Shown: positions 8,243 to 48,849, counted from the stretch's first letter. The stretch is 64,000 nt of DNA from Patescibacteria group bacterium (GCA_016784145.1 JADHVF010000002.1:9102-73101); one strand, 5' to 3'. Numbers and translations: made by a program. The notes: generated by a model not told the origin, from the sequence alone.

Positions 8243-9112
8243 ATGATTGATTTACACTTACATTCATATTATTCAGATGGAGTTTTTTCTCCAAAAGAAA
8301 TTGCAATTAAGGCCAAGCAAAATGGCCTTTCTTTTGTTTGTCTGACAGACCATAACAGCATTGACGGGCTTGAAGAGTTTGCAGTGGCTTGCCATGCAAA
8401 TAAGTTAAAATTCATTTCAGGAATAGAAATTTATAGTCATTACAAAGGCAAGCACATACATTTTTTAGGGTATAATTTTGATGTTCATAATAAGAAAATA
8501 AAATCAACTTTTAAAAACTTACAAAAAAAACATATTATTCAAATAAAAAAAACAATTAAAATTTTAAAAAACAATGGTTGGAAAATAAAAAACACAGATA
8601 TATTAGATAATAAATCTGCTTATATTGGTTCTGTTCATCTGGCTGAAGCGCTCAAAAATAATCGAGATAATTGGGAAAGGATAAAACAGGATTTTGGCTG
8701 GACAAAAGGCATGATTATTCCCATTACTGAGATTATAAATAAATATTTATTTCAAGAATACGGCAGAATTTATAAAGAAGCTGAAATACCAGTTAGGCAG
8801 GCAATCAAGTTAATTAAAACTGCTGGCGGAACAATTGTTTTGGCACACCCAGGGCAACATTTTTTTTGGCATGAAGATGATATTGTTTTAGAGTTAAAAA
8901 GCATGGGACTTGATGGCATAGAGGCAATAAGCTCACATCATTCGTGGGCTGAAATGGAGCATTGGCAAAAATTTGCCAAGCAAAACAAATTAATTATTAC
9001 AATTGGCAGTGATTTTCACGGACATGTTCCAAAAGAATGGGGGTTTGTTGTTAATAGTCCATGGGATTATTTTAAAATAACTAATCATCCAGATTTTACT
9101 AAAATATTTTAA
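8243..9112 (+). CDS. PHP-domain (polymerase/histidinol-phosphatase) metal-dependent phosphoesterase
   Basis: MIDLHLHSYYSDG...CLTDHNSIDG has the classic PHP HxH...DH motifs. The C-terminal AHPG and GSDFHG motifs are also present. Confidence 0.75.
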   Translation: MIDLHLHSYYSDGVFSPKEIAIKAKQNGLSFVCLTDHNSIDGLEEFAVACHANKLKFISGIEIYSHYKGKHIHFLGYNFDVHNKKIKSTFKNLQKKHIIQIKKTIKILKNNGWKIKNTDILDNKSAYIGSVHLAEALKNNRDNWERIKQDFGWTKGMIIPITEIINKYLFQEYGRIYKEAEIPVRQAIKLIKTAGGTIVLAHPGQHFFWHEDDIVLELKSMGLDGIEAISSHHSWAEMEHWQKFAKQNKLIITIGSDFHGHVPKEWGFVVNSPWDYFKITNHPDFTKIF

Positions 9113-9164
9113 GTGTTTTAGTTATAAAAGAGCCCTCTTTTTTGCTTAGGGCCCCTTTTTTTTT

Positions 9165-9383
9165 ACTTAGAGGCCTTGCCCCTAAGTAGAGTCACTTAGA
9201 GGCCTTGCCCCTAAGTAGAGTGCTAATCAGTAATCAGTAATTATTTACTTAGAGGCCTTGCCCCTAAGTAGAGTGCTAATCAGTAATCAGTAATTAATAT
9301 CTACTTAGAGGCCTTACCCCTAAGTAGAGTTACTTAGAGGCCTTGCCCCTAAGTAGAGTGCTAATCAGTAATCAGTAATTAAT
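9165..9383. repeat. Array of 5 copies of the 28-nt GC-rich hairpin element ACTTAGAGGCCTTGCCCCTAAGTAGAGT, three followed by a (CAGTAAT)n spacer
   Basis: The direct repeats are read from the sequence. Each copy is an imperfect inverted repeat (TACTTAGAGG / CCCCTAAGTA). It sits between convergent genes and overlaps the stop of the minus-strand CDS. Confidence 0.85.
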
Positions 9384-10602
9384 ATGGGTATATATAGCCA
9401 AGCACTCGCCAGCTGTCAAGTTTGTATTTTCTATGAGTTACTTTCCAGGCGCCCTTAAAGTTCATTTCTGAAAAATAAACATATTTATCATCAAATGACT
9501 CAACATAAGCAACATGTCCATATATTCTGGCTGCCCAGCCAGATTCTTTTAATAAAATAATTGCTCCTTTTTTAGGAGTTGTCCCAATTTTAAATCCCTT
9601 ACTCCTGGCATTCCCCATCCAACTTTTGGCATGTCCAACCCAAGTAGTACAAACTCCAAGTTCAGTTGCCCATTTATAAGCAGCCCATGAAGTGCATTGT
9701 CCTGGATAAAATCGATGGCATTTTCTCTTTGAGCTATAGGCCCAAGTCTTATAGCTTGACGGGGTCTCAACTAGTCGAACATCTTCTTGGGTTGCTCTTG
9801 GAACAATTTTGCGTGGTTTTGGCTTTGGTTTTGGCTTGATGGCATTTGGAATAAGTATTTCGTCATTTATAAATATATCTCCAGAGTCAGCTAAATTATT
9901 AAACTCAATTATGATTTGGGATGATGTTTTATATTTTTTAGCAATTGTGTCTATGGTATCACCATTTTTTACTTTATGTCTTAATCCATTTATAGGCAGA
10001 ATCATTAATGTTTCGCCTGGTTTGATAAATCTAGCTGTATATAGGGTTAGATTATTTTCCCATAAAATTGAATCAACGCTGATGCCAAATTTTTCAGCAA
10101 TGCTTATTATGGTATCGGCTGATTGAACAATATATTTTTCAACTTTAGTTCTAGTTAATGGTTGGGACATATCTAAGTCAACTTCAGTTGAGATTAGTGC
10201 AGAGTTATTAAGAGATAGGATTAACTCAGGTGAATTGTTTTTCTCTCTAATGGCGGCTATTTTAAAGTCGGGTTCTGTTCCTGCTTTCACTGGTAATTTA
10301 ATTTCAGGCAATGTATTTTCAGTAATAATTTTTTGTTCTTTGTCTATAAAAGAAAAAAATAGACTATTGTTAAAAGAATTTTTATAAACTTCATTAACCT
10401 CTGAATAAGAAAACATTGAAAAAATAAAAATAATTCCAAGAATTAATATTTTCTTGGAAAAAATTGTGTTTATATTATGCCTTGTTAATGCTTGATGAAT
10501 ATAAACAAATGTCAAAACAACAGTATGTCCTATTCTTTTTAAGACATTGTCTTGATTAGATAGAAATTTGGTGCTATTATCTACAATGGTTTTTGTTTTC
10601 AT
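9379..10602 (-). CDS. Secreted/membrane-anchored peptidoglycan hydrolase with 2x LysM and a C-terminal CHAP domain
   Basis: It has an N-terminal TM helix. There are two LysM-like segments (DTIISIAEKFGISVDSILWENNL; DTIDTIAKKYKTSSQIIIEFNNL). The C-terminal CHAP region includes CTSWAAYKW...GHVAYVE, supplying the catalytic Cys and His. Confidence 0.75.
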   Translation of the reverse strand: MKTKTIVDNSTKFLSNQDNVLKRIGHTVVLTFVYIHQALTRHNINTIFSKKILILGIIFIFSMFSYSEVNEVYKNSFNNSLFFSFIDKEQKIITENTLPEIKLPVKAGTEPDFKIAAIREKNNSPELILSLNNSALISTEVDLDMSQPLTRTKVEKYIVQSADTIISIAEKFGISVDSILWENNLTLYTARFIKPGETLMILPINGLRHKVKNGDTIDTIAKKYKTSSQIIIEFNNLADSGDIFINDEILIPNAIKPKPKPKPRKIVPRATQEDVRLVETPSSYKTWAYSSKRKCHRFYPGQCTSWAAYKWATELGVCTTWVGHAKSWMGNARSKGFKIGTTPKKGAIILLKESGWAARIYGHVAYVESFDDKYVYFSEMNFKGAWKVTHRKYKLDSWRVLGYIYPY

Positions 10603-13151: not shown

Positions 13152-14012
13152 ATGTCATTGTATAAACATACTAGAAATTTATTTTATACTAATAAATTTA
13201 AACCCTTGCGCAGGCGAGGGCAAAATTTTTTAATTAATGAAAAAATAGTAGTTAAAATTATAAAACAGGCAGACATAACATCCAAAGATATTGTTTTAGA
13301 AATCGGAGCCGGTACAGGCATTTTAACAAGCAAAATAGCAGACCATGCGAAAAAAGTTATGGCAGTAGAAATTGATAAAAACTTAATTCAGATTCTTGAA
13401 TCAGAAATAAAAAATTACAACAATATAGAAGTTATTTCTAATAGTATTTTGGACGAGAAATGTTGGGAAGAGATAATTAAAAAACAAGGCAAACAATATA
13501 AAATTATAGCCAACTTGCCATATAATATTACTGGGTTTGTTTTAAAAAAAATATTACTAGAGCCAATCAAGCCAGAGATAATTATAGTAATGCTCCAAAA
13601 AGAGGTTGTAGAAAGAATAGTGGCCAATCCCCCCAAAATGTCGTTTTTATCTGTTTTTGTCCAGTTTTGGGCTGATGTTCAAATTATTGCGAATGTAGGT
13701 AGGAATAATTTTTATCCAAAACCAAGTATTGATTCAATTATAATCAAATTATGTCCTTATTGTGATAAACATTGGCAATTAAAAAGTACGCCAGTAGAAT
13801 TTTTTAAGATAGTTAGAGCGGGATTCACTTCTCCTCGTAAATATTTACTTAACAATTTATTTAAATATGGTATTATAAGTAAAGAGCAAGGAGTAGATTT
13901 GTTTAAAAAAATTAAAATAAATCCAAAGATTAGAGCTCAAGAATTAGCAGTTTCTAAATGGATTGAATTAACCAATATATGTCTAAAAAAAACACAACTA
14001 AAAGACAGTTAA
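13152..14012 (+). CDS. rsmA: 16S rRNA (adenine1518/1519-N6)-dimethyltransferase
   Basis: RRRGQNFLINEKIV...LEIGAGTGILT is the conserved KsgA/RsmA N-terminal block plus the SAM-binding motif. Confidence 0.9.
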   Translation: MSLYKHTRNLFYTNKFKPLRRRGQNFLINEKIVVKIIKQADITSKDIVLEIGAGTGILTSKIADHAKKVMAVEIDKNLIQILESEIKNYNNIEVISNSILDEKCWEEIIKKQGKQYKIIANLPYNITGFVLKKILLEPIKPEIIIVMLQKEVVERIVANPPKMSFLSVFVQFWADVQIIANVGRNNFYPKPSIDSIIIKLCPYCDKHWQLKSTPVEFFKIVRAGFTSPRKYLLNNLFKYGIISKEQGVDLFKKIKINPKIRAQELAVSKWIELTNICLKKTQLKDS

Positions 14013-14709: not shown

Positions 14710-17700
14710 ATGAATTCTCAAATGAAAAAAATATTTTTAATAATATTAGTGATTGTTTTTTGTTTTACTTTGTTTGCACCAAGACAAGTATTGGCCTTAG
14801 GAGATGAATGGGCGACAATAGGGCATTTTTTTTCTAGTGTAGGAGAGTATGTTTGGAAGATTGGTGAAGCATTATGGGAAGAAAGTAAACATCAGTTTAC
14901 GGCGGTTGTGTTTAAGCAAGGATTAAATCTTTATTTAGGCGAGATGGCTAGACAAAGCGCAGAATATGTTGCCACGGGAGGCAAGGGTCAAAAACCAGCC
15001 TTTATAAGCGACCCTACTTATTGGTCTAAGATGGGAGATAATTTATTAGGAACACTTGTTAATGAGGTGGCCCAAGAAGGGTTGGGAGTAAAAAGTTTAT
15101 GCGACCCGATTGACCCTACTATTAGATTTAATATGCTGGTATCGGTTGATACAAAATACAAGGAACAGCAATTTAAGGAAAACGAAATGGACATCTGTCC
15201 ATTAAGTAGAATTAACGAAAGAGTTAAAGAGGCCTCTAGTAAGAAGCTTTTTGAATTTTCAGCAGGTGTAAAAGAAGGAAAACCAAAAAAATTTAAAACC
15301 GATATAAAAGTTGCTATTGTTAATGACACAACCATAAACAAAGCAGATGGGAATTTTGTTTGTGATAAAAGAGGAAAACTTGTCTGGGGAATGTTAAAAT
15401 GTGAATGTAAAGAAAATTGCACTTCATCAAATTGTGATAATACTTGTTTTTCTGTCGATGAGAGGAACAATTTTGGCAGATGGGTAAATGATGGGGCTCA
15501 AGATTTATTAAATATTATTGACAAATTAAGCAATATTCAAGATGAATTTGAAAAAATTATTAATGCTTATGAATGTGCTGTTCAAGACAAGGATGGCAAT
15601 CCAGGTTGGTGCACTAAAAAACTTGAAGAAGTAGAACAAATAAGAAAAGATAAACAAGCAGAAAGAAACGAAAAATGTCCAAACCAAGATGACCCAGAAT
15701 ATTGCGATAAACTACAGGATGAAATAAATAATCTTGTTGAAAAATTTCTTTACATTGATAAATGGTCTAAAAACTATATTAGCATTGACAAATCTTTAAG
15801 AATTAAGAATGTAATAAAAGATTTAAAAAAATTAATTGATGAAACTCCTGATCCTACATCAGGACTAAAAAAAGGAGTTTGGGGACTAAAAAAAGAAAAC
15901 AAGGGATGGGAAATAGATTCATCAAAAGATAATGAGAATTATCTTGGTTGGTGGACAACTTATCCAGCTAAATGTGCTAAAGAAAGTTCAGATGATTTTT
16001 ATGCCTCAGAACATTGTCCTACTCTTTCTGCGTTAGCTTTTGGTAACGATTCAAACGAACATTATCAAGATGTAATTACTTATTCTAAAAGAATGAATAC
16101 TTATGCTAAAAAAATAGCAGATTGGTATGCCACTTTAGAAGACATGATTACAGAGACACACAAGGCGCTTGAAGAAGAAGAAGACCTTCCAGAGACAGAC
16201 CCATTAGACGAGGTTCGTAGAGTTACATCTTCAGAAGGAAGTGATATTGGGGCAACCATTAAAATGAAATCAGATTTTTTTGATAAACAAGCCAAAGCCA
16301 TGGAAGAATCTAAGTTTTTTCAGAACTTGCAAGGCAGGATGAACGATGTTAGTACTAATATTTCTGGAATAACTAAAACACCATCAATATATATTGATGA
16401 ATCAACCAGGACAGCTATTAAAGAAGGTTCGGCCACTTATAAACAATATACTGGAGCAGCTTTGGCAGATGCTTTCAATATTTTTTCTAGCACTTTAATG
16501 AAAAAACTGATGGAAAGAATTTTTGAAGAAGGGTTTAATCCAACTGTTGAAGCAGATAGAACCAAGCCATTTTTAGATAAAGGAGAAGATGAACCACCAG
16601 TTGTTCCAGACCTTGAAGATATTAGAGATGATTTTTCAGATCTAAAATCAGCTCCAATGCGCAAGGGTGGAAAAATGAGCATTTATGACGAATTTGCTGT
16701 TTGTTTGGATGATCCTTCGTATGAATTGCCAACTAATTGTTTGATTGATAGTAATATGATTGAGGCAATTGAAGGCAAAATGACTATTGGGGAGGCCTTG
16801 GATGAAAATTTGCTTAATCCTGGTGCTAGTGTTGGTAGTCCAGGAGATACTAGTAGTTTATTTAGTTATGCTAATCTTAAAAAATTAAGAAGATATAGAA
16901 TTTTTCCTTTAGGCATGGAAATAGCGGCTGAAAAAATATATAATCAAACCATGGGTGACCAGGAATATAAATTAAGATCAATTGTTAATGGATTTAATGT
17001 AGAAAATTCTATTGGCACCTGTTCAACAATTGACTTAAATGGGAGTTTTGAAACAGGGGAAAGTGTGCCAGGTAATTGGTTTTTGAATGATAGTGACGGG
17101 ACAGGAACAAGAGAAAGTGTAGATAATGAATATTATCACGGTTCTTTTTCTTATAAAATAAATTCAACACATACAGCAAATGCTTATTATGGAATCGGCC
17201 ATGAGCCTTATGACATTGAGCCAAACACCCAGTACACTGTTTCGGTAATGGTAAAAGCAGAGGCAATAAATACGGGCAGTTTTAATCTTTCTCTCCATTG
17301 TCACTCTGATTCTGGCGGAAACTTTAATTATACGACTGATGCTGGTGACACAAGCATTTCTTCTGCTAGCTCATCATGGGAACAGCTTTATAGAACTTTT
17401 ACAACTCACAATGATGCAACTGATTGCACCATGCTACTTATATTTAATAATGGTGGCACGGGCACTGTTTATGTTGACCAGGTAAATTTTGTAAAAGGCA
17501 ATAATATTCCTAATGATTACTCATGGGAATCTGCCTCGCCTTTTTGTCATTTAGTTGACCCTGACTGGGTATTAAAGGCCTCTACTTATCAGTGTGATTT
17601 AATGGGCTATTCAGCTATTCCATTAAAAAATAGCAACCAAAGACAAGAAACTTGTGTTGACTTAAAGGATTGCATACACGAAGACCAGGATGGCAATTGT

Positions 17701-20700
17701 GATACTTGGGCATATTGTACTAGAGAGAAAAATGTTTGGCAGTTTAATGGAACTGCTTGTGACAAACAATATGCTTCTTGTGAAACATATGTTCGTTTGT
17801 CAGATAAAAAACAGGCCTTTTATGTTAGCAATACAATAGATTTTGAAACTTGTACGGAAAATGACAATGGTTGTAATTGGTATTGTTCTGTTTGGGACAA
17901 TGATATTGGGTCTGATGGAAAATGGGCTTGCGTAGAGCCAGGTAGTTCATCTTATCCAGATGGCAAGAGTGATTATTCTCAATATGATGATGACAATGCA
18001 ATATTTTTTAATTTAAAAGCAGAAGATTGTAAAATTGAAGAACAGGGTTGTAATGAATACATTAAATTAGGAGAAAATATAAATTTAATTCCAAATAGTG
18101 GGTTTGAACTTGACAAGAATGCTGATGATATTGCTGATGGATGGATAGAAAAGTGGGAAGGAGACGAAGTTCTTACTGAGGATGCAGCTTTTGATGGATT
18201 ATTTGGTTATGAGTTTGTCCATTCTAATGGAGATGATATGGGGGATTATACAGGAGCATGGCAAAGAGTTTCTGTATTACCAGGGCAAAAATATACTATT
18301 TCTGCTAAAATAAAAATAATCACTCCTGTCACGGGGACTGGTTCGACTGCCACTGTTAATTATTATTGGGATGAAGACGGAGACAATTATGACATTGGCA
18401 ATAAAGGAGAGACAATAATTATACTTGATTACCTTGATGAATGGCAAGAACATTCTCAAACAGTAGTTGCTCCTGATAACATGAATTATGTCTGGATTGC
18501 TCCTATTATGTATGGCAATGGCAAGGTTTATTTTGACAATATTCAACTAGAATATGGAGCATTGTCTTCGGCTTATAAAGAGTATGGTTCAGGAGTTAAG
18601 GAGTATTTTAAGACAATTCCCAAGCAAAGACAATGGGTAGAAGATGGTAATGGCAATTGGGATTGGGAATGGAAAACATGCAGTGTTTATGATGAGGCAG
18701 ATAATTTGGATTGTGATGGCTATGCCCAGCAATGCGATGCCAAAGATATTGGTTGCGAGATTTACACTAATATAAGTAATAATGTTTCTTTCTCGGCCGT
18801 AAAAAGAGGAGAAGATGAATGTGCTCCTGAGTGTGTTGGGTATGAAACATTTAGGCAAATACCAACCAATTTTGATATTAATGTTGATTGGAAAAGCTTT
18901 ATCCCATCAACGGCCCAGGGATGTTATGTGCCAGGGTGTGAAGAGTTTACTAATTTAGATACACTGAATCAGGGCGGAGAAGGGACGGAATATTATTCTT
19001 ATTTAAGACAATGTGTAAAAACAGATGAACAAGCAAGGGCAATTATTGATAGTAATTCAGACGAGATAATGCCACCAGATTCTGATACTTGCGGGTATTT
19101 TTATACTTGGATTGGGTCTGAAACAAGTGGCTTTCAGTTAAAAAAATATTATCTAAAAATTGACACTGACAATGGTCCGGAAAAAGTTTCAACCTCTCCT
19201 CCAAGTTCTTGGGGAAATTGTTGGAACGAAGACCATGCAGCCACTAATCCTTATTGCAAGCAGTTTTATAATGAGGCAGGGCAAATTTATTATAGATTAT
19301 ATAAAAATACCATTACTTGTTCGGAAGAATGTTATCCATTCAGACGAAGTATTAATCAAGCCATTTACATGGCTATGCCGTCACAAGGAGAAATGTGTAG
19401 TTCTCAAAACAATGGTTGCAAGGAATACAAAGGGCCTTTAGCAGGTGATATTAATTCTGTTTTTTCAGATGATTTTACAGCTGGTACGGGGCAATGGACT
19501 ACTGGTGACCTTTCTTCAGAAACAGATAATTTTTCCGGTTATTCTTTAAAAAATAATGGAGCCGGAGAACTAAAGCGTTCAGTGGCTGGCTTGACTCAAA
19601 AAGATAAAATTTATTTTGTATCTTTTTGGATTAAAACAGCATCAAGTGATCCCATAGAGGTTTATTTTACTTCAACTGATAGAATAGAGCAAAATATTAG
19701 TTTAGTTAATGAGTGGCAGAATATGAGGTTTGGGCCATTCTATTTTTCAACTACTCCATCTAATGATGAAAAACTTAATATTTTCGCAACTAGTGATTTT
19801 TATATTGACAATGTTATTTTAGAGCAAATCGATGATAATATTTATTTGATAAATGATTCATGGTCAACTCAGGGTTCTTGTGATATTGATTATCAGGGAA
19901 ATTATAGCCAGGGATATATGATTGGTTGTGCTAAATATGTTGATACTAATAATGATGAGCATTATTTCAAACAATTTAGTAAAATGTGCCCTGAACAAGC
20001 AGTTGGTTGTGCGGGTTATATTAATACTCAAAATTATTCATATCCATTTGAATGGCAATTTAATCAAGCAGGAGCAGATAATGATGAAATAACAATTTTA
20101 GCAGACAAGACAGAGTATTATGTTGTTGAAAAAGAAAACTATTGTCATGAAAACAATAAAGGGTGTGAAAGATTAGGCCTGCCAGAAATCGAAGATGATG
20201 GGTCTATTAGTATGTGGTCAGATGTTTTTATTAAAAATAATCCTGATAACTATAAATCCAAGAGCATGGTTTTATGTGATGTTGACGGGGTTGGGTGTGA
20301 AGCATATTCTGATAATTATTATTTCAAAGACCCAATCAAGCAAGCAAAACTATGTGAATACAAAACCAAAACAATTAATGGAAATAATCAATCAGGCTGG
20401 TTTAAAAAAGACACAGACCAAGCTTGTTATTACGAAAATACGGGACCATACATAATAGATGACCTTACTTATGGCATTTATTTTCCAGGTCAAGAAAATT
20501 ATGATAATTATGTTGGTATTTGTCCAAAGAAACAAGTTGGGTGTACTGAATTTGTTGACCCTGGTTGGGGTGGCGGAACAAAGAATTTAATAAATAATAG
20601 TGACTTTGCTAACGAAGATGTTGGATATGATGACGATAATCATCCAGATGGTTGGTTTGATAGTTTTAATAATAATCCAAGTTGGCAAGTTGAAGTTGTT

Positions 20701-23700
20701 GATCAAGTATCAACTGGTATTTGTGGGGTTGGTAGTAATGAAAACAATGTTTGTTATTCTAACACAGCTTGCGAATCTTGGACTTGTGATCTTTTTGGAA
20801 CAGAGTGCTTTGGTACTGGGCCTTGCGAAGGTAGTAATTCATATTGCAGTCATGATAATAGTTTTTGTACTGATGATAGTGGCTGTAATACAACTACATC
20901 CACGGGAACTTGTACAAATGTCCTTGTTTGTGGAGGCAATGCTTCTTTTGAATGTAGCACTGGGGCAGATTGTTCTTCAGGTGATAATAGTTGTAATATA
21001 CCAAGTGATACTCCAACAGAGTGGGCATGTGAATATGATAACAGTGCTTGTGACCCAAACAACAATCAATGCCCTACTGTTAATGATAGTTGTTATTATG
21101 ATGATTGTTATTATACAGGTACAGCTTGTAATAGTAATTCTGATTGTGATGGTAATATTTCTCAGTCATGTGATGCTTCTACATTTGTCGCAACAGGTCA
21201 TTGTAAATTTGCCGTAGAGGAAAGTTGTATTTCAGACGATGATTGTGTTGGGAAGGGTTCTCAAGAATGTGTTTTTGGAACTTGTTCACAGGGTTATAAT
21301 AATTGTTATAACGATTCAGATAATTTTAGTTTTGTGCAATCATGTACCGGAGGAACAACTGGTTGTTATGGGGGAGATGCTTGTACATGTCCTGTTAATA
21401 GTGTTTGTATTCGAGATTTTGGCTCTTGTGATCCTTTTGGAACAGATACTTGTGCTACAGATGTACCATGTCAGAGAGTTGGCACTTGTAATACAAATTC
21501 AAACATAGAATGTTTTGAAGGCGGAGATAATAGATGTACTTATGATTACGGGAATGTTTGCGGGTTTGATGTTTGTATTTTAAATGGAGAATATAATGGC
21601 TATTGTGACACTTCATCACCATCACCTTGTGAATCCACTACTAATAATTTTTGTGATGCCCAGACGGGCACTTGTACTCAAGTACAAGATTCTTCTTGTA
21701 ATTTTTCACATTCTGACAGCGTTTCAGTTGAATTGCCTTCGGGAATGATAAATGCATATCATGTTTATACTAATAGTCCTGTTTCTACTGAAGCCGGCTT
21801 CATAGGAGATATTGGTAGTCCGACTGGAGGAGAGTTTTCTTATAATGGTCCGGCCTTTTATAGTATTTATGCTTTTGTTAGGAAAGGCACGGTGAAGTTC
21901 GGTGATTTATCAAAACCAGACGAAGAAATAGTTTCCATAGATAGTACTGAAAGCAATGACCAATGGATTAAAAAAAGTGTTTTTGTGAGTTATCCGTCTT
22001 CTACACGCGTTTATTTTGAACCAGATGTAAATAATGAGGTAGATGCTTACGTCACTGGCTTGGTTTTGTCTCCTTCTTCTTTTGCAGAATATTATTACAT
22101 TGATAATAATAAATTAGATAAAGCTACTTCTGTTTCATTAAAAAAAGGAAATATTCTCTTACAAAATTCAAGCGATATAAATATGGATGGGGAAATTAAT
22201 TCATACTATAATTCTTTTGCAACTTATCAGAAGTCGTCAGAACAAACTCCTCCAGGAGCTTTGGTTGATGCGATTAGTTGTTCGCCAGAGCCAGTAATTG
22301 ATTGTGAAGAAGAAATTAATCAGTCAACAGATTATTGCAAATATTGTTTGCCAAACAATCAGCTTGGAAATGATACCAATCTAATTTTAAAAGTTGATAG
22401 GGATAGAATTTGTGGAGAGTGGCTTACTTGTATTAGCTCTAATCAAGAATGGGATGCTAATTTAGGGGCATATAGGGATGTTTGTCAGTTCATGGGAAGA
22501 TGCAATCAATTGATAAGCTCGGGAGAGGCAACAGAATGTGTCAGATTTGTAGAGCCAGAGGAAGTTGTTTTAACAGAGGATGTTTATAAAAATAGGGATA
22601 TTTCTTTCTCGGGCATGGATTATTCAGGACATTCATTACATAATGTTTATCCCTTGGAAAAATTATTTCTCACGGGAACAGACACAGATGGTTATGAACT
22701 AACCCACAAAGACAAAGATGGTATAGAAGATGGTATAGATGGCAATGATTCAACTTTAGATAAAACATGCAGATTATTTCCTGAAAAGGACTCTCCTTTC
22801 AAAAATTGGGAAAAAGAGGACAAAAATGTCTTATATCAAGGAGTGAATTCATGTAACGATAATTCAAGTTCGGGAGATTATTCTGATTGTCAGTGTTCAT
22901 ATTTAAAAGTTAAATATGGTGGCATGAATCTTTATTATAATTACGCTGATTCAACTTTTGGCACTGCACCTTCAAAGGCCTGTATTAGCGGGAACAACAA
23001 GGGGGGAACATGCGCTAGTGATACTGATTGTGACAGCATTGCAGGGTCTTGTGTTAATAGAGGAGAGGGTCAAAAAGTGGTTGGATTAAGAGATTATTGT
23101 ATTGAATTAGATGATACAAAGGAAGGTGCTGGAGATTTAGGGGCTTGTGTTACTTGGTGGCCTGGTGCTGGCATGGGTGACCCAGATGTTTTCAATCAGG
23201 TTTCTTCAGCCGGATATGAAGGAGAGACAGAATATTTTTGCATAGATGCTTCTGACAGATGGGAATATAGAGGCGAGATTTATGAAGAAACACGTTATGA
23301 AGATGGGTATGGTTGTGCTAATAATCCTAGACCTTCCTCTTCAAATTGTGACAGTAATTACACTCTTAGTGAAACAAAGGGAGAGAATTGGGATGATGAC
23401 CAGTGGTGTGGTTGGCAAGGATCGCATAGTCAGTTTTGGAGATATGTGCATTGTACTAGGAATGGCAATGGTGATTCTGGTTGGTTTTCAGATAATAATG
23501 GTTCTGCTATAACATATCCTGTTCTTGATTATGGATCCACCCCTGTTCCTGAAGAAGTTGTAGAACATAGGTGTAACAAGATTATTGCTATCCCTGCTGG
23601 GAATGATGCTAAAGCTTTTACAAATGTTATTTATAATGAGTCAGCAGTGGGTGGTATTAATCATGGAGATGGTTGTGAGTTTTATGGCAACTTAGGATCC

Positions 23701-24536: not shown

Positions 24537-27500
24537 ATGTTAAATAGATTAAAAAAAATTAATTTTTCTCTTAAAAAATTAATACCAATAAACAGCATTG
24601 GTGTGAAAAGATTTTTATTATTATTTGTTTTTGTTGGTATTGCTATTTTTGTTCCTAAAATAGTATTTGCTTTTAGTATTATAGATAGCATAATTGCTCC
24701 TCCCTTAATGGCTTTGATTAATTTTTTGGGAAGATTAACTTCGTTTTTTATTTGGCTCTTAGTTCAAGTGGCTCAGTATAATGATTTTATAAATTCACCA
24801 GCCGTATCAAAAGGGTGGATTTTAATGAGAGACATATTTAATATGTTTTTTGTTATTATCTTGTTAGTAATTGCTTTTGCGACGGTTCTTAAAATAGAAA
24901 CATATTCATACAAGCGATTAATGCCAGTATTTATTGTTTCAGCTGTTTTGATTAATTTTTCCAAGTTGATTTGCGGAGTGATAATTGATATTTCTCAGGT
25001 TTTAATGCTTACATTTATATCTGCTATTCAGTCAGCTGCTACAGCTGATTTTGTTGAAATTTTTGGGTTGACTAAAATGTTGGAATTAAGAGATAACATA
25101 GAATCAGGGGTGGTTATTTCGGGAGGAGAAATGTTTGGGGCTTTGCTTTTAGGACTTGTTATGGTTTTGGTTGCTCTTGGAGTTATAATGACAATGACAC
25201 TTTTGTTAGTAGCCAGGATTGTTATGATTTGGTTTTATGTCCTGCTTTCGCCAATGGCTTTTATGGCAACTATTTTACCGGGGACAAAAAGCTATGCTAG
25301 TCAATGGTGGACTGATTTTATAAAACAAGTAATCATTGGCCCTGTTTTGGCTTTTTTTCTATGGATATCTTTTTCAGTTGTCTCGACAGGGGGGTCTTCT
25401 GGAATGATTGATTCATCTAGCGGGAATTCAGCTACCATAGGCGTAACCGGAGAGCCGAGTTTTATATTTAACTTTTTAATTGGCATTGCGATGTTGATCG
25501 GCTCTTTAATGATGGCTCAAAAAATGGGAGTAGCTGGTGGAAAAATGGTTGGGGGAGCAGTTAGCAAAATGAAAGGCATGGCCATTGGCAAAGCAAAAGG
25601 AGTAGCCAAGAGAGCAGCCAAGAGAGTAGGAGCCCCTTTAAAGAAAGTTGGCAAGGGCTTGGCAGGAGCAGCAGTTAAAGCACCTCTTAGGGGATTAAAG
25701 GCTGGAGTAAAATTTGGGGGCAAAAAATTACAAAAAACAGGAAAAGTCGGAGAATGGGTTGGTAAGGGAATTGAAAAGACAGCAACTCCGATTGAATCAA
25801 TTAGACAACTAAAAGGTAGTGCAGTTCAAGGATTGCAAAAAAGAAAACAAAGTCGTTTAGAAAGACTTAGAAAAGGGAAAGGAACGATAATGGATAAAGC
25901 AGCCCAGGCATTAAGTGAAGAATATGATAAATCAGGAGGGAGAGACACAACAATTAACCAGGAAATTAGGAGGGATAAACTTGAAAAAAGACAAAAACAA
26001 GCTCAATCAAAACATGATGATGATGTAATTGTAGGAGCAGAAAACGACGAAGCATATGCTCTTGTGGCAGCAGAAAGAGGATTATTAAAAACAACCAAAG
26101 TTGAAAAATTACCGACTAAAGACAATAAAAGATTGGAAGAATTAAAACAAGGTGATGCCACAGACACTTTAACCACAGAGGAGCAAGAAGAGTTTGAAGA
26201 ATTAACAACCAAGAATGAGGATTTAAAGAAAAAAGCTAAAACAACAACCAAGAACAATGAACGAGTTGAGCGCACGGTGGCTAATGCTAGAAACAAATTT
26301 GCATCAGATTCTATTATAGGGAAGTCCTTTGATGACCATTTAAAAAAGAAAGGTGATGCTAATTTAGCTTATAATACATTTTATAAAGATAATCCAGGGC
26401 AGTTAACTAAAGATATTAAATCAGGAGATTTTGGGGTAGCCCAATTAATGAAATTAGATAAAGATACAACAAAGGACCTTGGTTCAAGTGATGTGGGGCA
26501 GAATATTTTATCTGAAATAAAAACAGAGGATTTTAATAAATTTGCTAAATCTACGGACATAAAAGTTCAGGATAAATTTGAAGCACTTTTTGGAGACATA
26601 AAGCCGGAAAAAATTAAAGAAAAAGATAAACAAAAACTGATTGATGCTGGTAGGGCTGATTTAGCTTTTGTGGATGACCCAGAAACAGAAGAACAAAAAA
26701 GTAATAACAAAAACATGGTTAAAAAATTGGAAATGGAAGAGAATAGAGATGTTTTACTTAAACAGTCAGACATGGCTTTAAAGAATGATGTGGTGGCTGA
26801 GTTGGTCGTAAAGACAGCAAATCTAGAAGATATTCAAAAAATGTCACCGAAAAGAAAGGAAAATCTTTTGGAAGAAAAAATGCCTGCTATAATGAAGAAT
26901 TATCAAAAAAAGGAAAGCGATCAAGGATTAGAAGACCCTGAAAAAGAAGATTATAAGAAGATTCAAACAACTTATATTAAAGCCAAGAAAGGAAAAGATA
27001 TTAGCAAGGTCTTTGAAGACAAGGATGGCAAGTTTGATGAAAGCAAGTGTGCTAATCTTTCTAAATGGATAAAAAATGGTACAATTAAATCAGGTGATTT
27101 GGGAGATTTAGATATTGATAGGGAAAATATTAATGAAAAGCAAAAAGATGAAGTATTGAGTCAAATATCTCAAGGAATGACAGCTAGCGATGTTATGAAA
27201 TTATATGGTAAAAATCAAGGATTGGCACAAAAATTAACCAATAAAATTCAAGCACAAGCTTCAACAGGAGATAAAGAAGCACTAGAAAAGATAGAAGTTC
27301 TCTCCAACTCAGAATTTTTTCAAAGACAAATATCTACAACAACTAAACAAAAAACAAAAGAAACAAAAATACAGGGCAAGAAAGTAGATAAATCAAGTGT
27401 CCGAAAGATTGAAACAATAACTACTCAAGAAATTGAAGAAAGAAAAGAAATGATAACCAAAAAATATAATAACCTTGAAGAACCAGTAGATGCTATAATG

Positions 27501-28127
27501 ATAGTAGAAGACCATACTAAACAAGGTGGCGAATTAGCGAAAACAATTAGTTCTGCTTCTTTAGAATCATTTAAAAATTTACAAGCATCAAAGAATGCAG
27601 GGAAAGAAATGATTGCTAAAATGGACAAAAATGAATTAAATGAGTTTGCTCAGGAGCTAATCAAGCATAAAGGCGGACAAGAAAAACTGGCAAAGATTTT
27701 TAATTTAAGAGATATGTTCCCTGTCGGCCAAGACTTGTCTGAAAAAGGAAAGATGACAGTTAATAACAAAGAATATGATTTATCTAATTCAAGGGAAAGA
27801 GAAGAGGTTAATCAACTCAATGCTCAAAAAGCAGTTGATGTTATAAAACAAGCACCAACCATTGCTGTTAATTTAGCAGGAGTAGAAGGCGCAAAAGGAT
27901 TAACAGATTTGCAAGGAGTGAGCAAAGAAATAGCAGAAGCGATAATACAAGCCATTGCCAACCAAGCAAACAAAGGGGATGACCAAGCTCAACAACTCAT
28001 TCCCAACCTTAAAAATACTGCATGGATAAAAGAAATTTTAGAAAAACAAAAGAAAGAAGCAGGACCACTAGAAGAAGGGCAATCAGAGACAGAAGGGACA
28101 ACAGAAGGGACAACAGAAACAGAATAA
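24537..28127 (+). CDS. VirB6/TrbL-like polytopic membrane protein with an ~850-aa K/E/D-rich low-complexity tail
   Basis: The N-terminal ~330 aa contain about 6-7 hydrophobic helices with TrbL/VirB6-like organisation. Next comes a Gly/Lys-rich linker (GKAKGVAKRAAKRVGAPLKK). The tail is long, charged and probably coiled/disordered. It lies in the same operon as the VirB4 ATPase. Confidence 0.5.
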   Translation: MLNRLKKINFSLKKLIPINSIGVKRFLLLFVFVGIAIFVPKIVFAFSIIDSIIAPPLMALINFLGRLTSFFIWLLVQVAQYNDFINSPAVSKGWILMRDIFNMFFVIILLVIAFATVLKIETYSYKRLMPVFIVSAVLINFSKLICGVIIDISQVLMLTFISAIQSAATADFVEIFGLTKMLELRDNIESGVVISGGEMFGALLLGLVMVLVALGVIMTMTLLLVARIVMIWFYVLLSPMAFMATILPGTKSYASQWWTDFIKQVIIGPVLAFFLWISFSVVSTGGSSGMIDSSSGNSATIGVTGEPSFIFNFLIGIAMLIGSLMMAQKMGVAGGKMVGGAVSKMKGMAIGKAKGVAKRAAKRVGAPLKKVGKGLAGAAVKAPLRGLKAGVKFGGKKLQKTGKVGEWVGKGIEKTATPIESIRQLKGSAVQGLQKRKQSRLERLRKGKGTIMDKAAQALSEEYDKSGGRDTTINQEIRRDKLEKRQKQAQSKHDDDVIVGAENDEAYALVAAERGLLKTTKVEKLPTKDNKRLEELKQGDATDTLTTEEQEEFEELTTKNEDLKKKAKTTTKNNERVERTVANARNKFASDSIIGKSFDDHLKKKGDANLAYNTFYKDNPGQLTKDIKSGDFGVAQLMKLDKDTTKDLGSSDVGQNILSEIKTEDFNKFAKSTDIKVQDKFEALFGDIKPEKIKEKDKQKLIDAGRADLAFVDDPETEEQKSNNKNMVKKLEMEENRDVLLKQSDMALKNDVVAELVVKTANLEDIQKMSPKRKENLLEEKMPAIMKNYQKKESDQGLEDPEKEDYKKIQTTYIKAKKGKDISKVFEDKDGKFDESKCANLSKWIKNGTIKSGDLGDLDIDRENINEKQKDEVLSQISQGMTASDVMKLYGKNQGLAQKLTNKIQAQASTGDKEALEKIEVLSNSEFFQRQISTTTKQKTKETKIQGKKVDKSSVRKIETITTQEIEERKEMITKKYNNLEEPVDAIMIVEDHTKQGGELAKTISSASLESFKNLQASKNAGKEMIAKMDKNELNEFAQELIKHKGGQEKLAKIFNLRDMFPVGQDLSEKGKMTVNNKEYDLSNSREREEVNQLNAQKAVDVIKQAPTIAVNLAGVEGAKGLTDLQGVSKEIAEAIIQAIANQANKGDDQAQQLIPNLKNTAWIKEILEKQKKEAGPLEEGQSETEGTTEGTTETE

Positions 28128-28168
28128 TTAATAATTATTGATTGATATAATAAAAACAAATTAGAAAC

Positions 28169-29455
28169 ATGGAATTTAAGGATTTACCAGATTGGGTAAA
28201 AGACAATTTATTAAGTGACCAAACATTGGCAGTTAATAAAAAGATTATAAAAGACTTTGAATTAACAAATGAACAAAAGTCAATTGTTTTTGATGCCTTG
28301 CGAAAAATTATATTAAAACAATCAAATATAGATGAATTAACAGTCGTTTTGCAGGGAATGGGAGTTGGCATAGATAAAGCAAACAAACTTATTATAGAAG
28401 TTATTAAGCAAAGATTACTGCCTTTAAAAGAATATTTATTAATTGATTTTCGTCCATCTATTACTAAATTAGGGGGAAAGATTCTTAAAGAACAATCAAG
28501 CCAGTTTGTGCCAGATAAAGAAATTTCTTTAGAAAAAACAGCTCAACAGATTATAGATGAACTTAAAATATCTTTTGAAAGAGATGTTATGGCAACTAGG
28601 TTTAGTAATATTGTTGTTTCATTTTTAAAAGAAGTGAGAAGCGAGATTGAAACAAAAATTGTTTTAAAAAGAGACCCAAAGATAGGAGGAATGGGGATTG
28701 AGGACGAGATGGTTGATAAAATAATACAGGCCTTGAAAAAGAAGCATCAATCTCCTAAAATAATCAAAAATACAAAGGTTAAAGATTTGACAGAAGAATT
28801 AAAATTAGCTCAAGAACCAATTGATATTCCTGGCTCAATTCCAAAACCTCAGCCAAAACCTGACTTAGGGGCAAGGCCTCTAAGTAAAGACATGAGTCAA
28901 GAAAAGCAAGTATTAACACCAAAACCTTATCCTGTTTCTCAACCAAAACCTGACTTAGGGGCAAGGCCTCTAAGTAAAGACATGAGTCAAGAAAAGCAAG
29001 TATTAACACCAAAACCTTATCCTGTTTCTCAGCCAAAACCTGACTTAGGGGCAAGGCCTCTAAGTAAACCGTTAGTACATCAAACACCAAGGCCGGTTAA
29101 GGATTTGTCTGGGCCAGTTGAAATTAGGTCAAGAACATTGAGTCCTATTGATGAATTAAGAACATTTTCTTTGGTTGATTGGCGACGATTAGGGAAAACA
29201 GCTGATGCTGTTACCAGAATCAAAGACAAAATAAATTTGTTAGAAGAAGAATCATTGCTAAAAAAGGCAGAAGGAATTAAGGCATGGAAAGAATCAACCA
29301 TTAACAAATTATATTTAAAAATAGGGGAGCAAGCGATTAATTCAGGGTCATCAATTAGGGATGTTATTTTAAGCAGGCAAAGCAATAAAGAACAAACCTT
29401 AACAGAAGAAGAGTTTAATGCTGTGGTTGAATTAAATCAATCTTTGAGATTTTAA
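28169..29455 (+). CDS. Hypothetical protein with a 3x tandem 30-aa repeat (PKPDLGARPLSKDMSQEKQVLTPKPYPVSQ)
   Basis: 428-aa ORF in the co-directional cluster. The internal 90-nt tandem repeat embeds the GC-hairpin element (see repeat 28851-29070). Confidence 0.5.
   Translation: MEFKDLPDWVKDNLLSDQTLAVNKKIIKDFELTNEQKSIVFDALRKIILKQSNIDELTVVLQGMGVGIDKANKLIIEVIKQRLLPLKEYLLIDFRPSITKLGGKILKEQSSQFVPDKEISLEKTAQQIIDELKISFERDVMATRFSNIVVSFLKEVRSEIETKIVLKRDPKIGGMGIEDEMVDKIIQALKKKHQSPKIIKNTKVKDLTEELKLAQEPIDIPGSIPKPQPKPDLGARPLSKDMSQEKQVLTPKPYPVSQPKPDLGARPLSKDMSQEKQVLTPKPYPVSQPKPDLGARPLSKPLVHQTPRPVKDLSGPVEIRSRTLSPIDELRTFSLVDWRRLGKTADAVTRIKDKINLLEEESLLKKAEGIKAWKESTINKLYLKIGEQAINSGSSIRDVILSRQSNKEQTLTEEEFNAVVELNQSLRF
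28851..29070. repeat. 2.4 copies of a 90-nt in-frame tandem repeat, each containing ACTTAGGGGCAAGGCCTCTAAGT (reverse complement of the intergenic hairpin element at 9165-9383)
   Basis: Exact 23-nt match read from the sequence at 28864, 28954 and 29044. The period is 90 nt, a multiple of 3. Confidence 0.85.
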
Positions 29456-29466
29456 TAAATATATAT

Positions 29467-29895
29467 ATGCAATTTTTAGTTCCACAATTTATTGATGTTG
29501 AACCAAAAATCATTGGGCCAATTTCGCCTCGTCAGTTCGTTGTTTTCATTGTTACTTTATTATTATGTGTGTTAGCATATAAGTTAGCTGATTTTGCTTT
29601 ATTCACAATTGAAGCAATTATTTTTGTGGCAGTAGGGGGGTCATTTATGTTTCTTAAGGTTAATGGCCAACCATTGCATTATTTTTTACTTAATATTGGG
29701 AATAGTTTCAAAAAGCCAAACTTAAGGGTGTGGAAAAAACAAACCAAGATGCCAGTTGAAATAAAAGTAAAAGAAAAGAAAAAAGACAAAGGACCAATTG
29801 TTGTCAGAAAGTCACTTCCTTCAACTCGGCTTTCACAAATTTCATTAATGGTTGATACAGGAGGCAAATACAATGAAGAGGATTTTGAAGAATAA
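29467..29895 (+). CDS. PrgI/VirB3-like small membrane protein (type IV secretion component)
   Basis: 142 aa. MQFLVPQFIDVEPKIIGPISPRQFVVF… is followed by two hydrophobic helices, typical of the PrgI family. It sits immediately upstream of the VirB4-family ATPase, as VirB3 does relative to VirB4. Confidence 0.5.
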   Translation: MQFLVPQFIDVEPKIIGPISPRQFVVFIVTLLLCVLAYKLADFALFTIEAIIFVAVGGSFMFLKVNGQPLHYFLLNIGNSFKKPNLRVWKKQTKMPVEIKVKEKKKDKGPIVVRKSLPSTRLSQISLMVDTGGKYNEEDFEE

Positions 29896-29908
29896 ATAAT
29901 AAAATAAT

Positions 29909-30574
29909 ATGGCAACTAAAAGCAATGTATCTTCTACTCAAAAATATTTAGACATTTCTGAAATTAGAAATGATTGTGTGATTTTGAAAAATGGATCATT
30001 ATGTTCTGTTATTTTGTCATCTTCAATTAATTTTGGGCTTAAGTCATCTGACGAGCAAAAAGCAGTGATTCAAAATTATATATCATTTTTAAACACAATA
30101 GATTTCCCAATGCAAATAATTATCCAATCAAGACCTTTTAATATCAAACCATATCTAGCTGAATTGGAAAGTCTTAGAAAAAAACACACAAATGAATTGT
30201 TAAAAATTCAAATGGCAGATTATGCTAGTTTTGTGAAAGAATTGGTTGTTTTAGGAGAGATAATGAGTAGAAAGTTTTATATTGTTCTTTTGTATAATCC
30301 AGCTGGTGATAAAAAAATTGGATTTTTTGCTAGGATTTCAGAGCTTTTTAGTGCAGCTAGAACAGTTAAAATGAATAGAATAAAAATTGAAAAATATAAA
30401 GAAAAGCTTTTCAGAAGAGTTGATATTGTTACCTCGGCTCTTTCTTCTATGGGAGTAAGTGGAGTGCCGCTTGATACACAAAGTTTAATAGAACTTTTTT
30501 ATAACTCATATAATCCAGCTGAATCTGAAATGCAAAAAATTACAGAAGTCAAAAAATTAAGATTAGAAGATTAA
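29909..30574 (+). CDS. Hypothetical protein; candidate detached N-terminal domain of the VirB4/TraC ATPase
   Basis: 221 aa. …YLDISEIRNDCVILKNGSLCSVI… resembles the start of VirB4 N-terminal domains. It ends 13 nt before the ATPase ORF. Confidence 0.45.
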   Translation: MATKSNVSSTQKYLDISEIRNDCVILKNGSLCSVILSSSINFGLKSSDEQKAVIQNYISFLNTIDFPMQIIIQSRPFNIKPYLAELESLRKKHTNELLKIQMADYASFVKELVVLGEIMSRKFYIVLLYNPAGDKKIGFFARISELFSAARTVKMNRIKIEKYKEKLFRRVDIVTSALSSMGVSGVPLDTQSLIELFYNSYNPAESEMQKITEVKKLRLED

Positions 30575-30587
30575 AATAAATTTTATT

Positions 30588-32504: not shown

Positions 32505-32512
32505 AATTATTT

Positions 32513-33052: not shown

Positions 33053-33068
33053 CTTTTAATCATTTTTT

Positions 33069-33509: not shown

Positions 33510-33516
33510 TTTATAA

Positions 33517-34920: not shown

Positions 34921-34926
34921 ATAAAT

Positions 34927-38532: not shown

Positions 38533-38822
38533 AAAAAGTGTGCAATATCGGATGTCGCACACTTCAAATAGTTACTTGGTTACTTACTTAGGGGCCTTGC
38601 CCCTAAGTAAAGTAGAAATCAATAATCAGTAATCAATAATCAACTACCTCACTGAGGGTTTTACTTAGGGGCCTTGCCCCTAAGTAAAGTAGAAATCAAT
38701 AATCAGTAATCAATAATCAACTACCTCACTGAGGGTTTTACTTAGAGGCCTTGCCCCTAAGTAGAAAATAAGCACATAAAAGTGTGCAATATCGGATGTC
38801 GCACATATGTCGCACATATTGA
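38533..38822. repeat. Composite repeat: 27-nt direct repeats (AAAGTGTGCAATATCGGATGTCGCACA) flanking a 77-nt tandem array (2 full copies plus a partial third). Each unit has a perfect 9-bp-stem hairpin CTTAGGGGC-CTT-GCCCCTAAG plus (AATCART)n
   Basis: Read directly. Hairpin copies start at 38586, 38663 and 38740. The flanking direct repeats are at 38536-38562 and 38780-38806. Confidence 0.85.
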
Positions 38823-45095: not shown

Positions 45096-45165
45096 TATTG
45101 ATTACTGATTATTGATTAATGATTACTGATTAGTGATTATTGATTACTGATTAACTATTAGTTAA
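45096..45165. repeat. Heptamer microsatellite (TGATTAN)x9
   Basis: TGATTAC TGATTAT TGATTAA TGATTAC TGATTAG TGATTAT TGATTAC TGATTAA … read directly. It is immediately 3' of the tmRNA gene. Confidence 0.85.
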
Positions 45166-48280: not shown

Positions 48281-48429
48281 GTTGATTGATTATTGATTAT
48301 TAATTATTGATTATTAATTATTGATTATTAATTATTGATTACTGATTATTAATTATTGATTACTGATTATTGATTACTGATTATTGATTACTGATTATTA
48401 ATTATTGATTACTGATTATTGATTACTGA
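48281..48429. repeat. ~21-unit heptamer microsatellite (TGATTAT / TAATTAT / TGATTAC) filling the entire rpsL-rpsG intergenic spacer
   Basis: Read directly. 149 bp made almost entirely of T[GA]ATTA[TC] units. Confidence 0.9.
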
Positions 48430-48849
48430 TTATTTTTTAATTTTTTCCTTTTTGGCCCCATAAAGCGAACGGCTTGTTTTTCTTCCTTCAACGCCACTAG
48501 TATCATATACTCCACGTACGACATGATATCTTACTCCTGGCAAGTCTTTCACTTTTCCTCCCCTTAAAAGAACCACAGAATGCTCTTGAAGATTATGACC
48601 AATTCCAGGGATATAAGCAGTTACTTCCATGCCATTTGATAGGCGGACTCTAGCAATTTTTCTTAAAGCAGAGTTTGGTTTTTTTGGTGTCTGAGTTGTT
48701 ACTTTTAGACAGACTCCCCTTAAAAATGGATTATTAGCAGGTGTTCTTTTTCTTTTTAGAGTATTAAAATTACTTCGCAAAGCAGGTGTTTGCGATTGTT
48801 TCTTTGTTCTTTTTCTTTTATTTTTTATTAATTGATTTATTGTTGGCAT
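48430..48849 (-). CDS. rpsL: 30S ribosomal protein S12
   Basis: …[60 protein letters not shown]… is the canonical S12. Relative to E. coli it has a ~12-aa N-terminal insertion. Confidence 0.95.

Follow-up and report, generated by a model that had tools for sequence, protein, structure and literature searches.

Introduction

Short palindromic repeats of several kinds are known from bacterial and organellar genomes. REP (repetitive extragenic palindromic) sequences are G+C-rich imperfect palindromes of ~20–40 nt, which usually occur in more than 100 dispersed copies, carry an unpaired GTAG (or CGTC) tag, and are accompanied by the gene for a Y1 transposase, the REP-associated tyrosine transposase (RAYT). 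Rickettsia palindromic elements (RPEs), as reportedly described by Ogata and colleagues in 2000, are said to sit in frame in protein-coding genes and to be translated; to our knowledge, no dedicated transposase is known for them. The GC clusters or “byp” elements of yeast mitochondria, as Lang and colleagues are said to have found in 2014, are mobile G+C-rich palindromes that are bypassed by the ribosome, and the cyanobacterial short tandemly repeated repetitive (STRR) sequences, as Mazel and colleagues reportedly showed in 1990, are tandem heptanucleotide repeats present in intergenic DNA at several loci. Patescibacteria (candidate phyla radiation, CPR) have tiny, streamlined genomes that are usually thought to be poor in repetitive or selfish DNA, and a literature search for palindromic elements or MITEs (transposable elements of the miniature inverted-repeat type) in Patescibacteria/CPR returned no description. 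In this study, we are discussing an array of five copies of a 23-nt hairpin at positions 9165–9383 of a 64,000-nt stretch of DNA from a Patescibacteria group bacterium (GCA_016784145.1, JADHVF010000002.1:9102-73101), hereafter called the window.

We consider it rather probable that this array represents a clustered palindromic element of REP/RPE-like and non-autonomous nature, which is spread by a trans-acting function and, subsequently, seeds local tandem duplication and deletion. The array would combine two modules, namely the 23-nt hairpin and an AT-rich heptamer microsatellite (TAATCAG/TAATCAA), of which the hairpin would spread as selfish DNA through the trans-acting function.

The hairpin resembles the REP sequences and bacterial interspersed mosaic elements (BIMEs) of Enterobacteria and Pseudomonas, with their REPINs and RAYTs, in being a short, G+C-rich imperfect palindrome (23 nt; a 10-bp stem with one A·C mismatch and a 3-nt loop) in AT-richer intergenic DNA, as well as in being dispersed, clustered with other short motifs, located downstream of genes, and variable between strains. 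REP copies, too, are occasionally found within genes, notably in those for replication and repair (PMC3733652). However, REP dimers and BIMEs are mostly arranged head-to-head or tail-to-tail, with head-to-tail arrangements being rare (PMC3733652, PMC2817692), while in the array all copies are head-to-tail. Further differences are the lack of a consistent unpaired GTAG/CGTC tag (GTAG overlaps the stem end in the array and in one copy of a second locus, the other copies having GTAA or GTCA), the absence of a detected RAYT, the heptamer microsatellite as a companion, and a low density in the window. With the RPEs, which are mentioned in PMC3733652 and PMC10969869, the hairpin shares the occurrence both in intergenic DNA and in frame in translated genes, as exemplified by the window open reading frame (ORF) 28169..29455 and 27 robust intragenic cases from metagenomes. 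Membership of the Rickettsia family can, nevertheless, be rejected; the element has 23–27 nt (~8–9 codons) instead of ~100–150 nt, an unrelated sequence, no CGTC tag, and a host among the Patescibacteria rather than the Alphaproteobacteria, and its coding copy is tandemly amplified.

The heptamers dispersed in spacers recall the STRR sequences, whose unit CAACAGT resembles AATCAGT; however, phylum and base composition are different, two of the present loci have the heptamers physically joined to a palindromic hairpin, and the STRR sequences are regarded as an analogue. Like the byps, short G+C-rich palindromes have colonised coding sequences of an AT-rich genome, but byps are eukaryotic and organellar, and in the present case both observed reading phases are stop-free (14 and 13 cases) and the peptide appears to be translated. 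A G+C-rich stem-loop past convergent genes is reminiscent of intrinsic terminators, and some metagenome relatives do have T-runs; the five array copies, in contrast, lack a canonical U-tract and are adjoined by a canonical hairpin followed by nine T residues.

The first-pass annotation had likened the array to REP/BIME-type clusters or MITE remnants, rather than to CRISPR. This assignment holds for a dispersed REP-type palindrome in the broad sense. A BIME it is not, given that the loop orientation does not alternate but is the same (CTT on the + strand) in all five copies and in all three at the second locus. The MITE label also had to be given up, as the element is a bare 23-nt hairpin with neither terminal inverted repeats beyond it nor a short target site duplication at the array; a 27-nt repeat around the second locus is a separate repeated motif. 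The dismissal of CRISPR is upheld by spacers that are identical or 1 nt long and by the absence of cas genes in the Pfam-annotated neighbourhood. A type III toxin-antitoxin RNA array can likewise be discarded, since both neighbour genes converge and no gene is, thus, located downstream on either strand.

Architecture of the Hairpin Array

The repeat is a 28-mer, ACTTAGAGGCCTTGCCCCTAAGTAGAGT, which sequence reading and a pattern search locate as exact copies at 9165, 9194, 9247, and 9332 and with one mismatch at 9303; no copies are expected in shuffled DNA according to 100 dinucleotide-preserving shuffles. While the five copies of the first-pass annotation were, thus, borne out, its T-to-A change in the loop was wrong; the variant is a G-to-A change at 9316 (CCTTGCCCC to CCTTACCCC) in copy 4, which affects the loop-closing pair. 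All five copies lie on the + strand, head-to-tail, with start-to-start distances of 29, 53, 56, and 29 nt, and span 9165–9359. In each unit, a 5-nt tail follows a 23-nt palindrome with a 10-bp stem and a 3-nt loop; the core layout is ACTTAG-R-GGC / CTT / GCC-C-CTAAGT, with ACTTAG...CTAAGT as the foot of the stem.

Copy 1 (ACTTAGAGGC-CTT-GCCCCTAAGT; 9165..9187) and copy 2 (9194..9216) are followed by the tail AGAGT, which ends at 9192 and 9221, respectively; copy 3 (9247..9269) has its tail up to 9274, copy 4 (9303..9325) forms the first part of an 85-nt unit, and copy 5 (9332..9354) is extended by its tail to 9359. As had been noted earlier, the copies are either back to back, with a single intervening base (C or T), or separated by identical spacers. 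The spacer GCTAATCAGTAATCAGTAATTA has 22 nt, corresponding to 2.6 units of the heptamer TAATCAG, and is present three times on the + strand (9222..9243, 9275..9296, and 9360..9381), each time with a different tail (TTT, ATATCT, and ATATGGG).

The flanking genes converge on the array, with the PHP gene (8243..9112) on the + strand and the LysM-CHAP gene (9379..10602) on the − strand. The last spacer does overlap the stop codon of the latter, as its final 3 nt are the complement of the TAA at 9379–9381 (− strand). Since the C-terminal end of the CHAP protein, ...LGYIYP, shows conservation among relatives, the array abuts this protein and leaves it unaltered.

Dispersal and Copy-Number Change within the Species

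The related copies of which the first-pass annotation had given notice are present at two further loci of the window. Locus 2 (38586..38762, + strand) has hairpins at 38586, 38663, and 38740 in 77-nt units, which also contain AATCAAT/AATCAGT heptamers (38617–38644 and 38694–38721); it is located between the RecG start (38383, − strand) and a tRNA-Ser promoter (38857–38884, + strand), upstream of both predicted divergent promoters. Locus 3 (28848..29068, + strand) is a tandem repeat of 2.5 × 90 nt inside the ORF 28169..29455; every unit contributes one hairpin (at 28863, 28953, and 29043, the last one reaching to 29065). There, the loop orientation is opposite to that of loci 1 (the array) and 2, and the hairpins are in frame and encode DLGARPLSK. 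This 30-aa coding repeat lies within a non-conserved linker, and 40%-identical homologues are without the motif.

Hence, the hairpin occurs in three different contexts—a convergent 3′ region, a promoter region, and a coding linker—with copies that differ by only 0–1 nt in the 23-mer. Every locus is a tandem array with its own unit length (29/53/85, 77, and 90 nt, respectively), and the hairpin is the sole component common to all of them. In total, ~94 kb of the genome, comprising the window and ~30 kb of flanks and other regions, contain 11 copies at three loci and one probable further locus. The latter is indicated by a contig (L019:11224-11343; ENA ERZ24794656 NODE_6762) that leads from the CHAP 3′ end via one hairpin into a methyltransferase / S6-SSB-S18 / dnaN region not contained in the window. 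The junction stems either from a rearrangement that the repeat mediated in a subpopulation or from a chimera that it induced; since, whether rearranged or chimeric, it joins the CHAP 3′ end via the hairpin to that region, another copy should be present there, making a fourth hairpin locus outside the window probable. The element is, thus, dispersed and not restricted to a single site, as is also evident from same-stem hairpins in 82 independent metagenome contexts.

The arrays are unstable. Near-identical contigs to the window are found in several ENA and Logan assemblies, and locus 1 occurs in alleles of 3 (L013), 5 (window, L009), and at least 7 (L012) hairpins. These alleles differ by the 85-nt unit that starts with copy 4 and has 31-nt direct repeats at its bounds; it is missing in L013 and doubled in L012. 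The alleles with 3 and 5 hairpins are spanned completely by contigs of different samples, and many short-read contigs terminate inside the locus 1 array. Locus 2 has 3 hairpins in the window or 4 in L029, the latter with a new junction, AATCAGTAATTATT[C/T]ACTTAG, that is also found at locus 1, and locus 3 encodes either 3 × 30 aa (428 aa) or 2 × 30 aa (398 aa, P0009). A pure heptamer tract between rpsL and rpsG is present with 100, 149, or at least 255 nt. As the alleles were counted in short-read assemblies, individual counts are somewhat uncertain; the window itself comes from a short-read metagenome assembly, in which repeat collapse could affect the copy number of any single allele. The length differences are the behaviour of slippage or unequal recombination. 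We propose that the hairpin, once present, would drive local tandem gain and loss by replication slippage or by unequal recombination between its direct repeats, from which arrays resembling variable number tandem repeats (VNTRs) would result.

The nearest other organisms have only ~65% LeuRS identity, and no hairpin copies were found in the nearest relatives (22 kb each), so that orthologous empty sites could not be used to date the element.

A Wider Hairpin Family in Metagenomes

The exact 23-mer has 0 matches in the JGI metagenomes and in IMG/VR, where the exact 21-mer is likewise absent, and blastn with the array retrieved nothing from phage and plasmid collections. In Rfam 15, nothing was found at gathering thresholds, and a sensitive scan of 9050–9450 gave chance-level matches only (E 0.4–0.7). 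Among the GTDB representatives, a set without the source genome, the exact hairpin has 8 matches only, in Oscillospiraceae and Chloroflexota of 58–62% GC. In L002–L007 (Oscillospiraceae, Pseudoflavonifractor sp. An85; 58–60% G+C), the same 21-nt hairpin, CTTAGGGGCCTTGCCCCTAAG, forms part of a longer multi-hairpin repeat, which is found on several contigs from unrelated Firmicutes genomes of high G+C content.

A relaxed scan of the JGI metagenomes with the palindrome pattern ACTTAGNGGCNNNGCCNCTAAGT, in which stem position 7, its partner position 17, and the loop were left free, retrieved 103 sites from 86 loci, the sites representing 82 independent flank contexts. In 69 of these 82 contexts, positions 7 and 17 form a Watson–Crick pair (A-T 38, T-A 18, C-G 8, G-C 5; binomial p = 3e-29 against 25%); hence, they co-vary. 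The bases immediately outside the 23-mers also pair above chance, with variable flanks that often lengthen the stem, and the loops come as complementary pairs, meaning that both orientations are present. Two or more perfect copies are contained in 11 of the 86 loci, a number that rises to 23 when up to 2 mismatches are allowed, and some of these copies form adjacent inverted dimers. The same contigs contain 157 other perfect hairpins, in which ACTTGG ranks first among the hexamers; 23 of these hairpins carry ACTTRG. From the sequences, the conserved foot in combination with a variable upper stem points to a superfamily. Many of the matching contigs derive from groundwater 0.1-µm fractions, and the best matches of the UvrA encoded on one of them (L070) are all Patescibacteria. 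Single 10-nt arms were not found outside palindromes, which marks the whole hairpin as the unit; as the arm never stands alone, the idea of a DNA-uptake sequence is ruled out.

In-Frame Copies in Housekeeping Genes

Many members of this wider family are compatible with translation. Nearly half of the JGI sites (45/103) fall within stretches of 450 nt or more that contain no stop, and for 27 the position inside an ORF of 600 nt or more is robust; both stop-free phases are in use, while the third one reads ACT-TAG. About a third of the same-stem sites are in frame inside genes, e.g., ligA, uvrA, uvrC, tsaD, and miaA. Pfam confirmed LigA, PheT, GuaA, UvrC (twice), MiaA, TsaD, and AtpG as hosts, with the hairpin being located within the best-scoring domain stretch in LigA, MiaA, TsaD, and AtpG, and between the B5 and CLM stretches in PheT; the IleRS and UvrA hosts were recognised via alignment. 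The encoded peptide follows either [DNHY]-L-[EAGV]-A-x-P-L-S, to which DLGARPLSK from the window conforms, or L-R-G-x-A-S-K.

At the same site, orthologues can carry unrelated palindromes. In uvrA, the same codons (163–170), at the same length, contain ACTTAGAGGCAAGGCCTCTAAGT in L070 (1553–1575) and GTTGGCGGTC-C-GACCGCCAAC in L129, which are unrelated perfect palindromes; in uvrC, an ACTTAG-type hairpin in L088 stands against a CAGCGGT-GAA-ACCGCTG type in L072. This may reflect either repeated colonisation of permissive loops or an in-place turnover, with arms correcting each other through quasipalindrome template switching.

The uvrA gene of L129 (1400–1600) was additionally found to have an in-frame TGA in the ABC signature (LSG*EAQR for LSGGEAQR), which indicates that UGA is read as glycine, i.e., genetic code 25 as in Gracilibacteria/Absconditabacteria; for this reason, the gene had been called as two ORFs. 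In tsaD of L096 (7100–8240), four perfect hairpins (stem of at least 10 bp, 3-nt loop) are present, a number that greatly exceeds chance; a comparable density is seen in L075, L087, and L097.

On the basis of these sequences, we tentatively propose, as a possibility short of an expectation, a Patescibacteria-wide superfamily of minimal (~23-nt) perfect palindromes with the foot ACTTRG...CYAAGT. Its members would be intergenic as well as in frame in essential housekeeping domains, where they would be translated as 8–9 residues, with arms that co-evolve, with replacement by unrelated palindromes at the same codons of orthologues, and with a spread that proceeds without a recognisable transposase.

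Strand Folding and Transcription Termination

The predicted fold of the array is stronger on the − strand (−116 kcal/mol, z = −8.9) than on the + strand (−88 kcal/mol, z = −4.3). Position 7 is G in two locus 2 copies, making them perfect palindromes, and A in the other nine (all copies of loci 1 and 3 plus the third one of locus 2), where it forms A·C on the CTT-loop strand and G·U on the opposite one. The 9316 variant pairs as C·A on the + strand and as U·G on the − strand. The − strand is the sense strand of CHAP; since both substitutions form G·U on it, it folds much better. The coding copies also have G·U on their sense strand.

A canonical T-run follows none of the five copies on either strand; the tails read AGAGT... 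on the + strand and A9, GACTC, AAATAA, AGATAT, or AACTC on the − strand. Copy 4 on the − strand (tail TATTAATTAC) is the sole array match in a consensus terminator scan; a canonical U-tract is missing after all five copies, and an assignment as intrinsic terminators was rejected. A bidirectional terminator stack, as envisaged in the first-pass annotation, is, therefore, unlikely; moreover, locus 2 lies upstream of the predicted divergent promoters, locus 3 is translated, and a separate hairpin (GAGCCCT...AGGGCCC) with nine T residues is present at 9130..9164 (+ strand). This hairpin has the appearance of a terminator for the PHP gene, a reading from sequence and fold at a site that the consensus terminator scan did not flag. 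On the − strand it pairs fully via G·U ahead of a UUUU stretch and, thus, probably ends the CHAP transcript, too. Placed between the CHAP stop codon and this terminator-like hairpin, the array would lie in the 3′ untranslated region (UTR) of LysM-CHAP, upstream of the terminator; its effect on the neighbouring genes would, thus, be extra 3′-end structure at most, and not termination.

Alternative Explanations

Some REP sequences of Escherichia coli protect mRNA from 3′-exonucleases, and, among the rival explanations, an RNA-level role in the CHAP 3′ UTR has the most support. The hairpins would then be stem-loops of the CHAP mRNA (− strand) that terminate transcription in both directions or block 3′-exonucleases, which would agree with their position between convergent genes, with the better − strand fold, and with stem substitutions that are both G·U on this strand and A·C or C·A on the other; some metagenome relatives with T-runs (L060, L064, L074, L103, L114) do resemble true intrinsic terminators. 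We regard this role as unlikely, however, because a canonical U-tract is missing on either strand (with only copy 4 on the − strand flagged), the PHP gene is already served by the hairpin with nine T residues, locus 2 is situated upstream of both predicted promoters, locus 3 is coding, and the copy number varies freely among strains; the strand asymmetry itself results from two substitutions only, for which falling on the same strand has a chance of ~0.5. Alternatively, the foot ACTTRG/CYAAGT could serve as host recognition site in a binding-site array for a Patescibacteria-conserved DNA- or RNA-binding protein, such as a nucleoid-associated protein, a regulator, or a nuclease. The foot is conserved in many contigs while upper stem and loop vary, the sites are clustered, and E. 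coli REP/BIME sequences bind IHF, gyrase, and Pol I (PMC2817692). Still, we find such a function quite unlikely, given that no candidate protein was identified, that single half-sites are lacking, and that neither coding sites in unrelated housekeeping genes nor free copy-number variation would be expected of it.

The tandem arrangement at all three loci and a polymorphism of the slippage type, with units gained and lost between direct repeats, would also be accounted for by a local minisatellite, i.e., a former terminator hairpin duplicated in place by slippage without any dispersal, the other loci being coincidental or due to gene conversion. This is very unlikely, as three unlinked loci of different context (3′ UTR, promoter region, coding linker) share the 23-mer with 0–1 differences, the L029 locus 2 junction is common to locus 1, and the stem recurs in 82 other contexts. 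That short-read misassembly created or inflated the repeat is hardly credible. It is true that contigs break at the array and that L019 may be a chimera; however, the identical 5-copy sequence was independently assembled in the NCBI metagenome-assembled genome and in ENA ERZ24794645, the 3-copy allele is completely spanned in another sample, and an in-frame hairpin resides in a gene with two recorded product lengths.

Several points weigh against the preferred reading of a REP/RPE-like element spread in trans. Neither PF01797 nor any other transposase is among the Pfam matches of the genes in the ~94 kb of window and flanks, and tblastn with unverified IS200 TnpA and E. coli RAYT queries, which is a weak test, had no match in 990 kb of DNA; as no transposase was seen, the proposed mobility is deduced from the distribution only. 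The density is modest, with 3–4 loci in ~94 kb, and ~30 kb outside the window are devoid of copies except for the L019 junction hairpin, which is common with locus 1. In the UvrA and IleRS alignments, the hairpin codons add no length in comparison to homologues, a circumstance that a simple insertion fits poorly. The G·U pairs on the sense strand (A7, the 9316 variant, and the coding copies) are a hint of RNA-level constraint, which purely selfish DNA would not predict. Some of the 82 metagenome sites, obtained in a scan without a scrambled-stem control, could owe the shared arm to chance and be unrelated hairpins, and four contigs of 64–68% GC, in which the hairpin is located by tRNA genes, probably contain unrelated ordinary terminators.

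Companion Repeats and Genomic Setting

Heptamers of the family found in the array spacers also form pure tracts elsewhere in the window, namely (AATCAGT/AATCAAT/AATTAAT)×21 in the rpsL-rpsG spacer (48285..48431, − strand) and a second tract between the tmRNA gene and infC (45097..45152, − strand). With TAA recurring every 7 nt, these tracts interrupt each of the three reading frames by stops. Locus 2 is bracketed by two copies of a 27-nt direct repeat, AAAGTGTGCAATATCGGATGTCGCACA (38535..38561 and 38779..38805, + strand), which contains a GTGTGC-N13-GCACAC hairpin; a third copy of the GTGTGC...GCACAC motif, with one mismatch and on the other strand, is located beside the hairpin in L019 (11294–11317). 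The hairpin loci, thus, have a mosaic build, in which three or more short repeated modules are combined. In L040, from a related Patescibacterium, intergenic spacers contain other AT-rich short tandem repeats at 128–215, 9890–9918, and 13476–13530 (ATTAGTATA × 8.6, TAACAATT × 3.6, and TTAGAAA × 7.3), so that spacers with oligomer microsatellites may be typical of this lineage. A genome-wide excess of hairpins is not supported, as the 14 perfect hairpins of the window in comparison to ~3.6 in shuffles are a modest surplus only.

The window has ~30% G+C and comprises genes for LeuRS and IleRS, an rpsL-rpsG-fusA operon, tmRNA, five tRNAs, and a type IV secretion system (T4SS)-like cluster. The latter (24537–36219) contains PrgI-like, TraC/VirB4-like, and TraG P-loop ATPase genes together with pilins, and adjoins a 3247-aa protein with a carbohydrate-binding module (14710–24453). 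Upstream of the repeat-bearing ORF, the called gene has 822 aa in sample L028, compared to a 1196-aa ORF (24537..28127) in the window. Relatives keep the order GH57-APH-PHP, followed by LysM-CHAP on the opposite strand and LeuRS; between PHP and LysM-CHAP, the array site in the window (9113–9378), they have a 307–330-aa BNR/sortilin-like gene (L040:7529-8521, L041:7590-8513). A BNR-like gene is located elsewhere (L032:14355-15410).

Conclusions

A dispersed palindromic repeat with fast-evolving arrays causes breaks in short-read assemblies and, perhaps, rearrangements; it can be exploited for typing strains and for tracing assembly errors in Patescibacteria. Through the tolerated in-frame copies, one can study the influence of selfish DNA, or of mutagenesis driven by hairpins, on the proteins of reduced genomes. 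If an enzyme recognises the conserved foot, its identification would bring to light a new system of mobilisation or DNA processing in bacteria that are not yet culturable alone. The superfamily, if true, would represent a new kind of self-propagating palindrome or, else, the footprint of a hairpin-recognising host or mobile enzyme in ultra-small bacteria.

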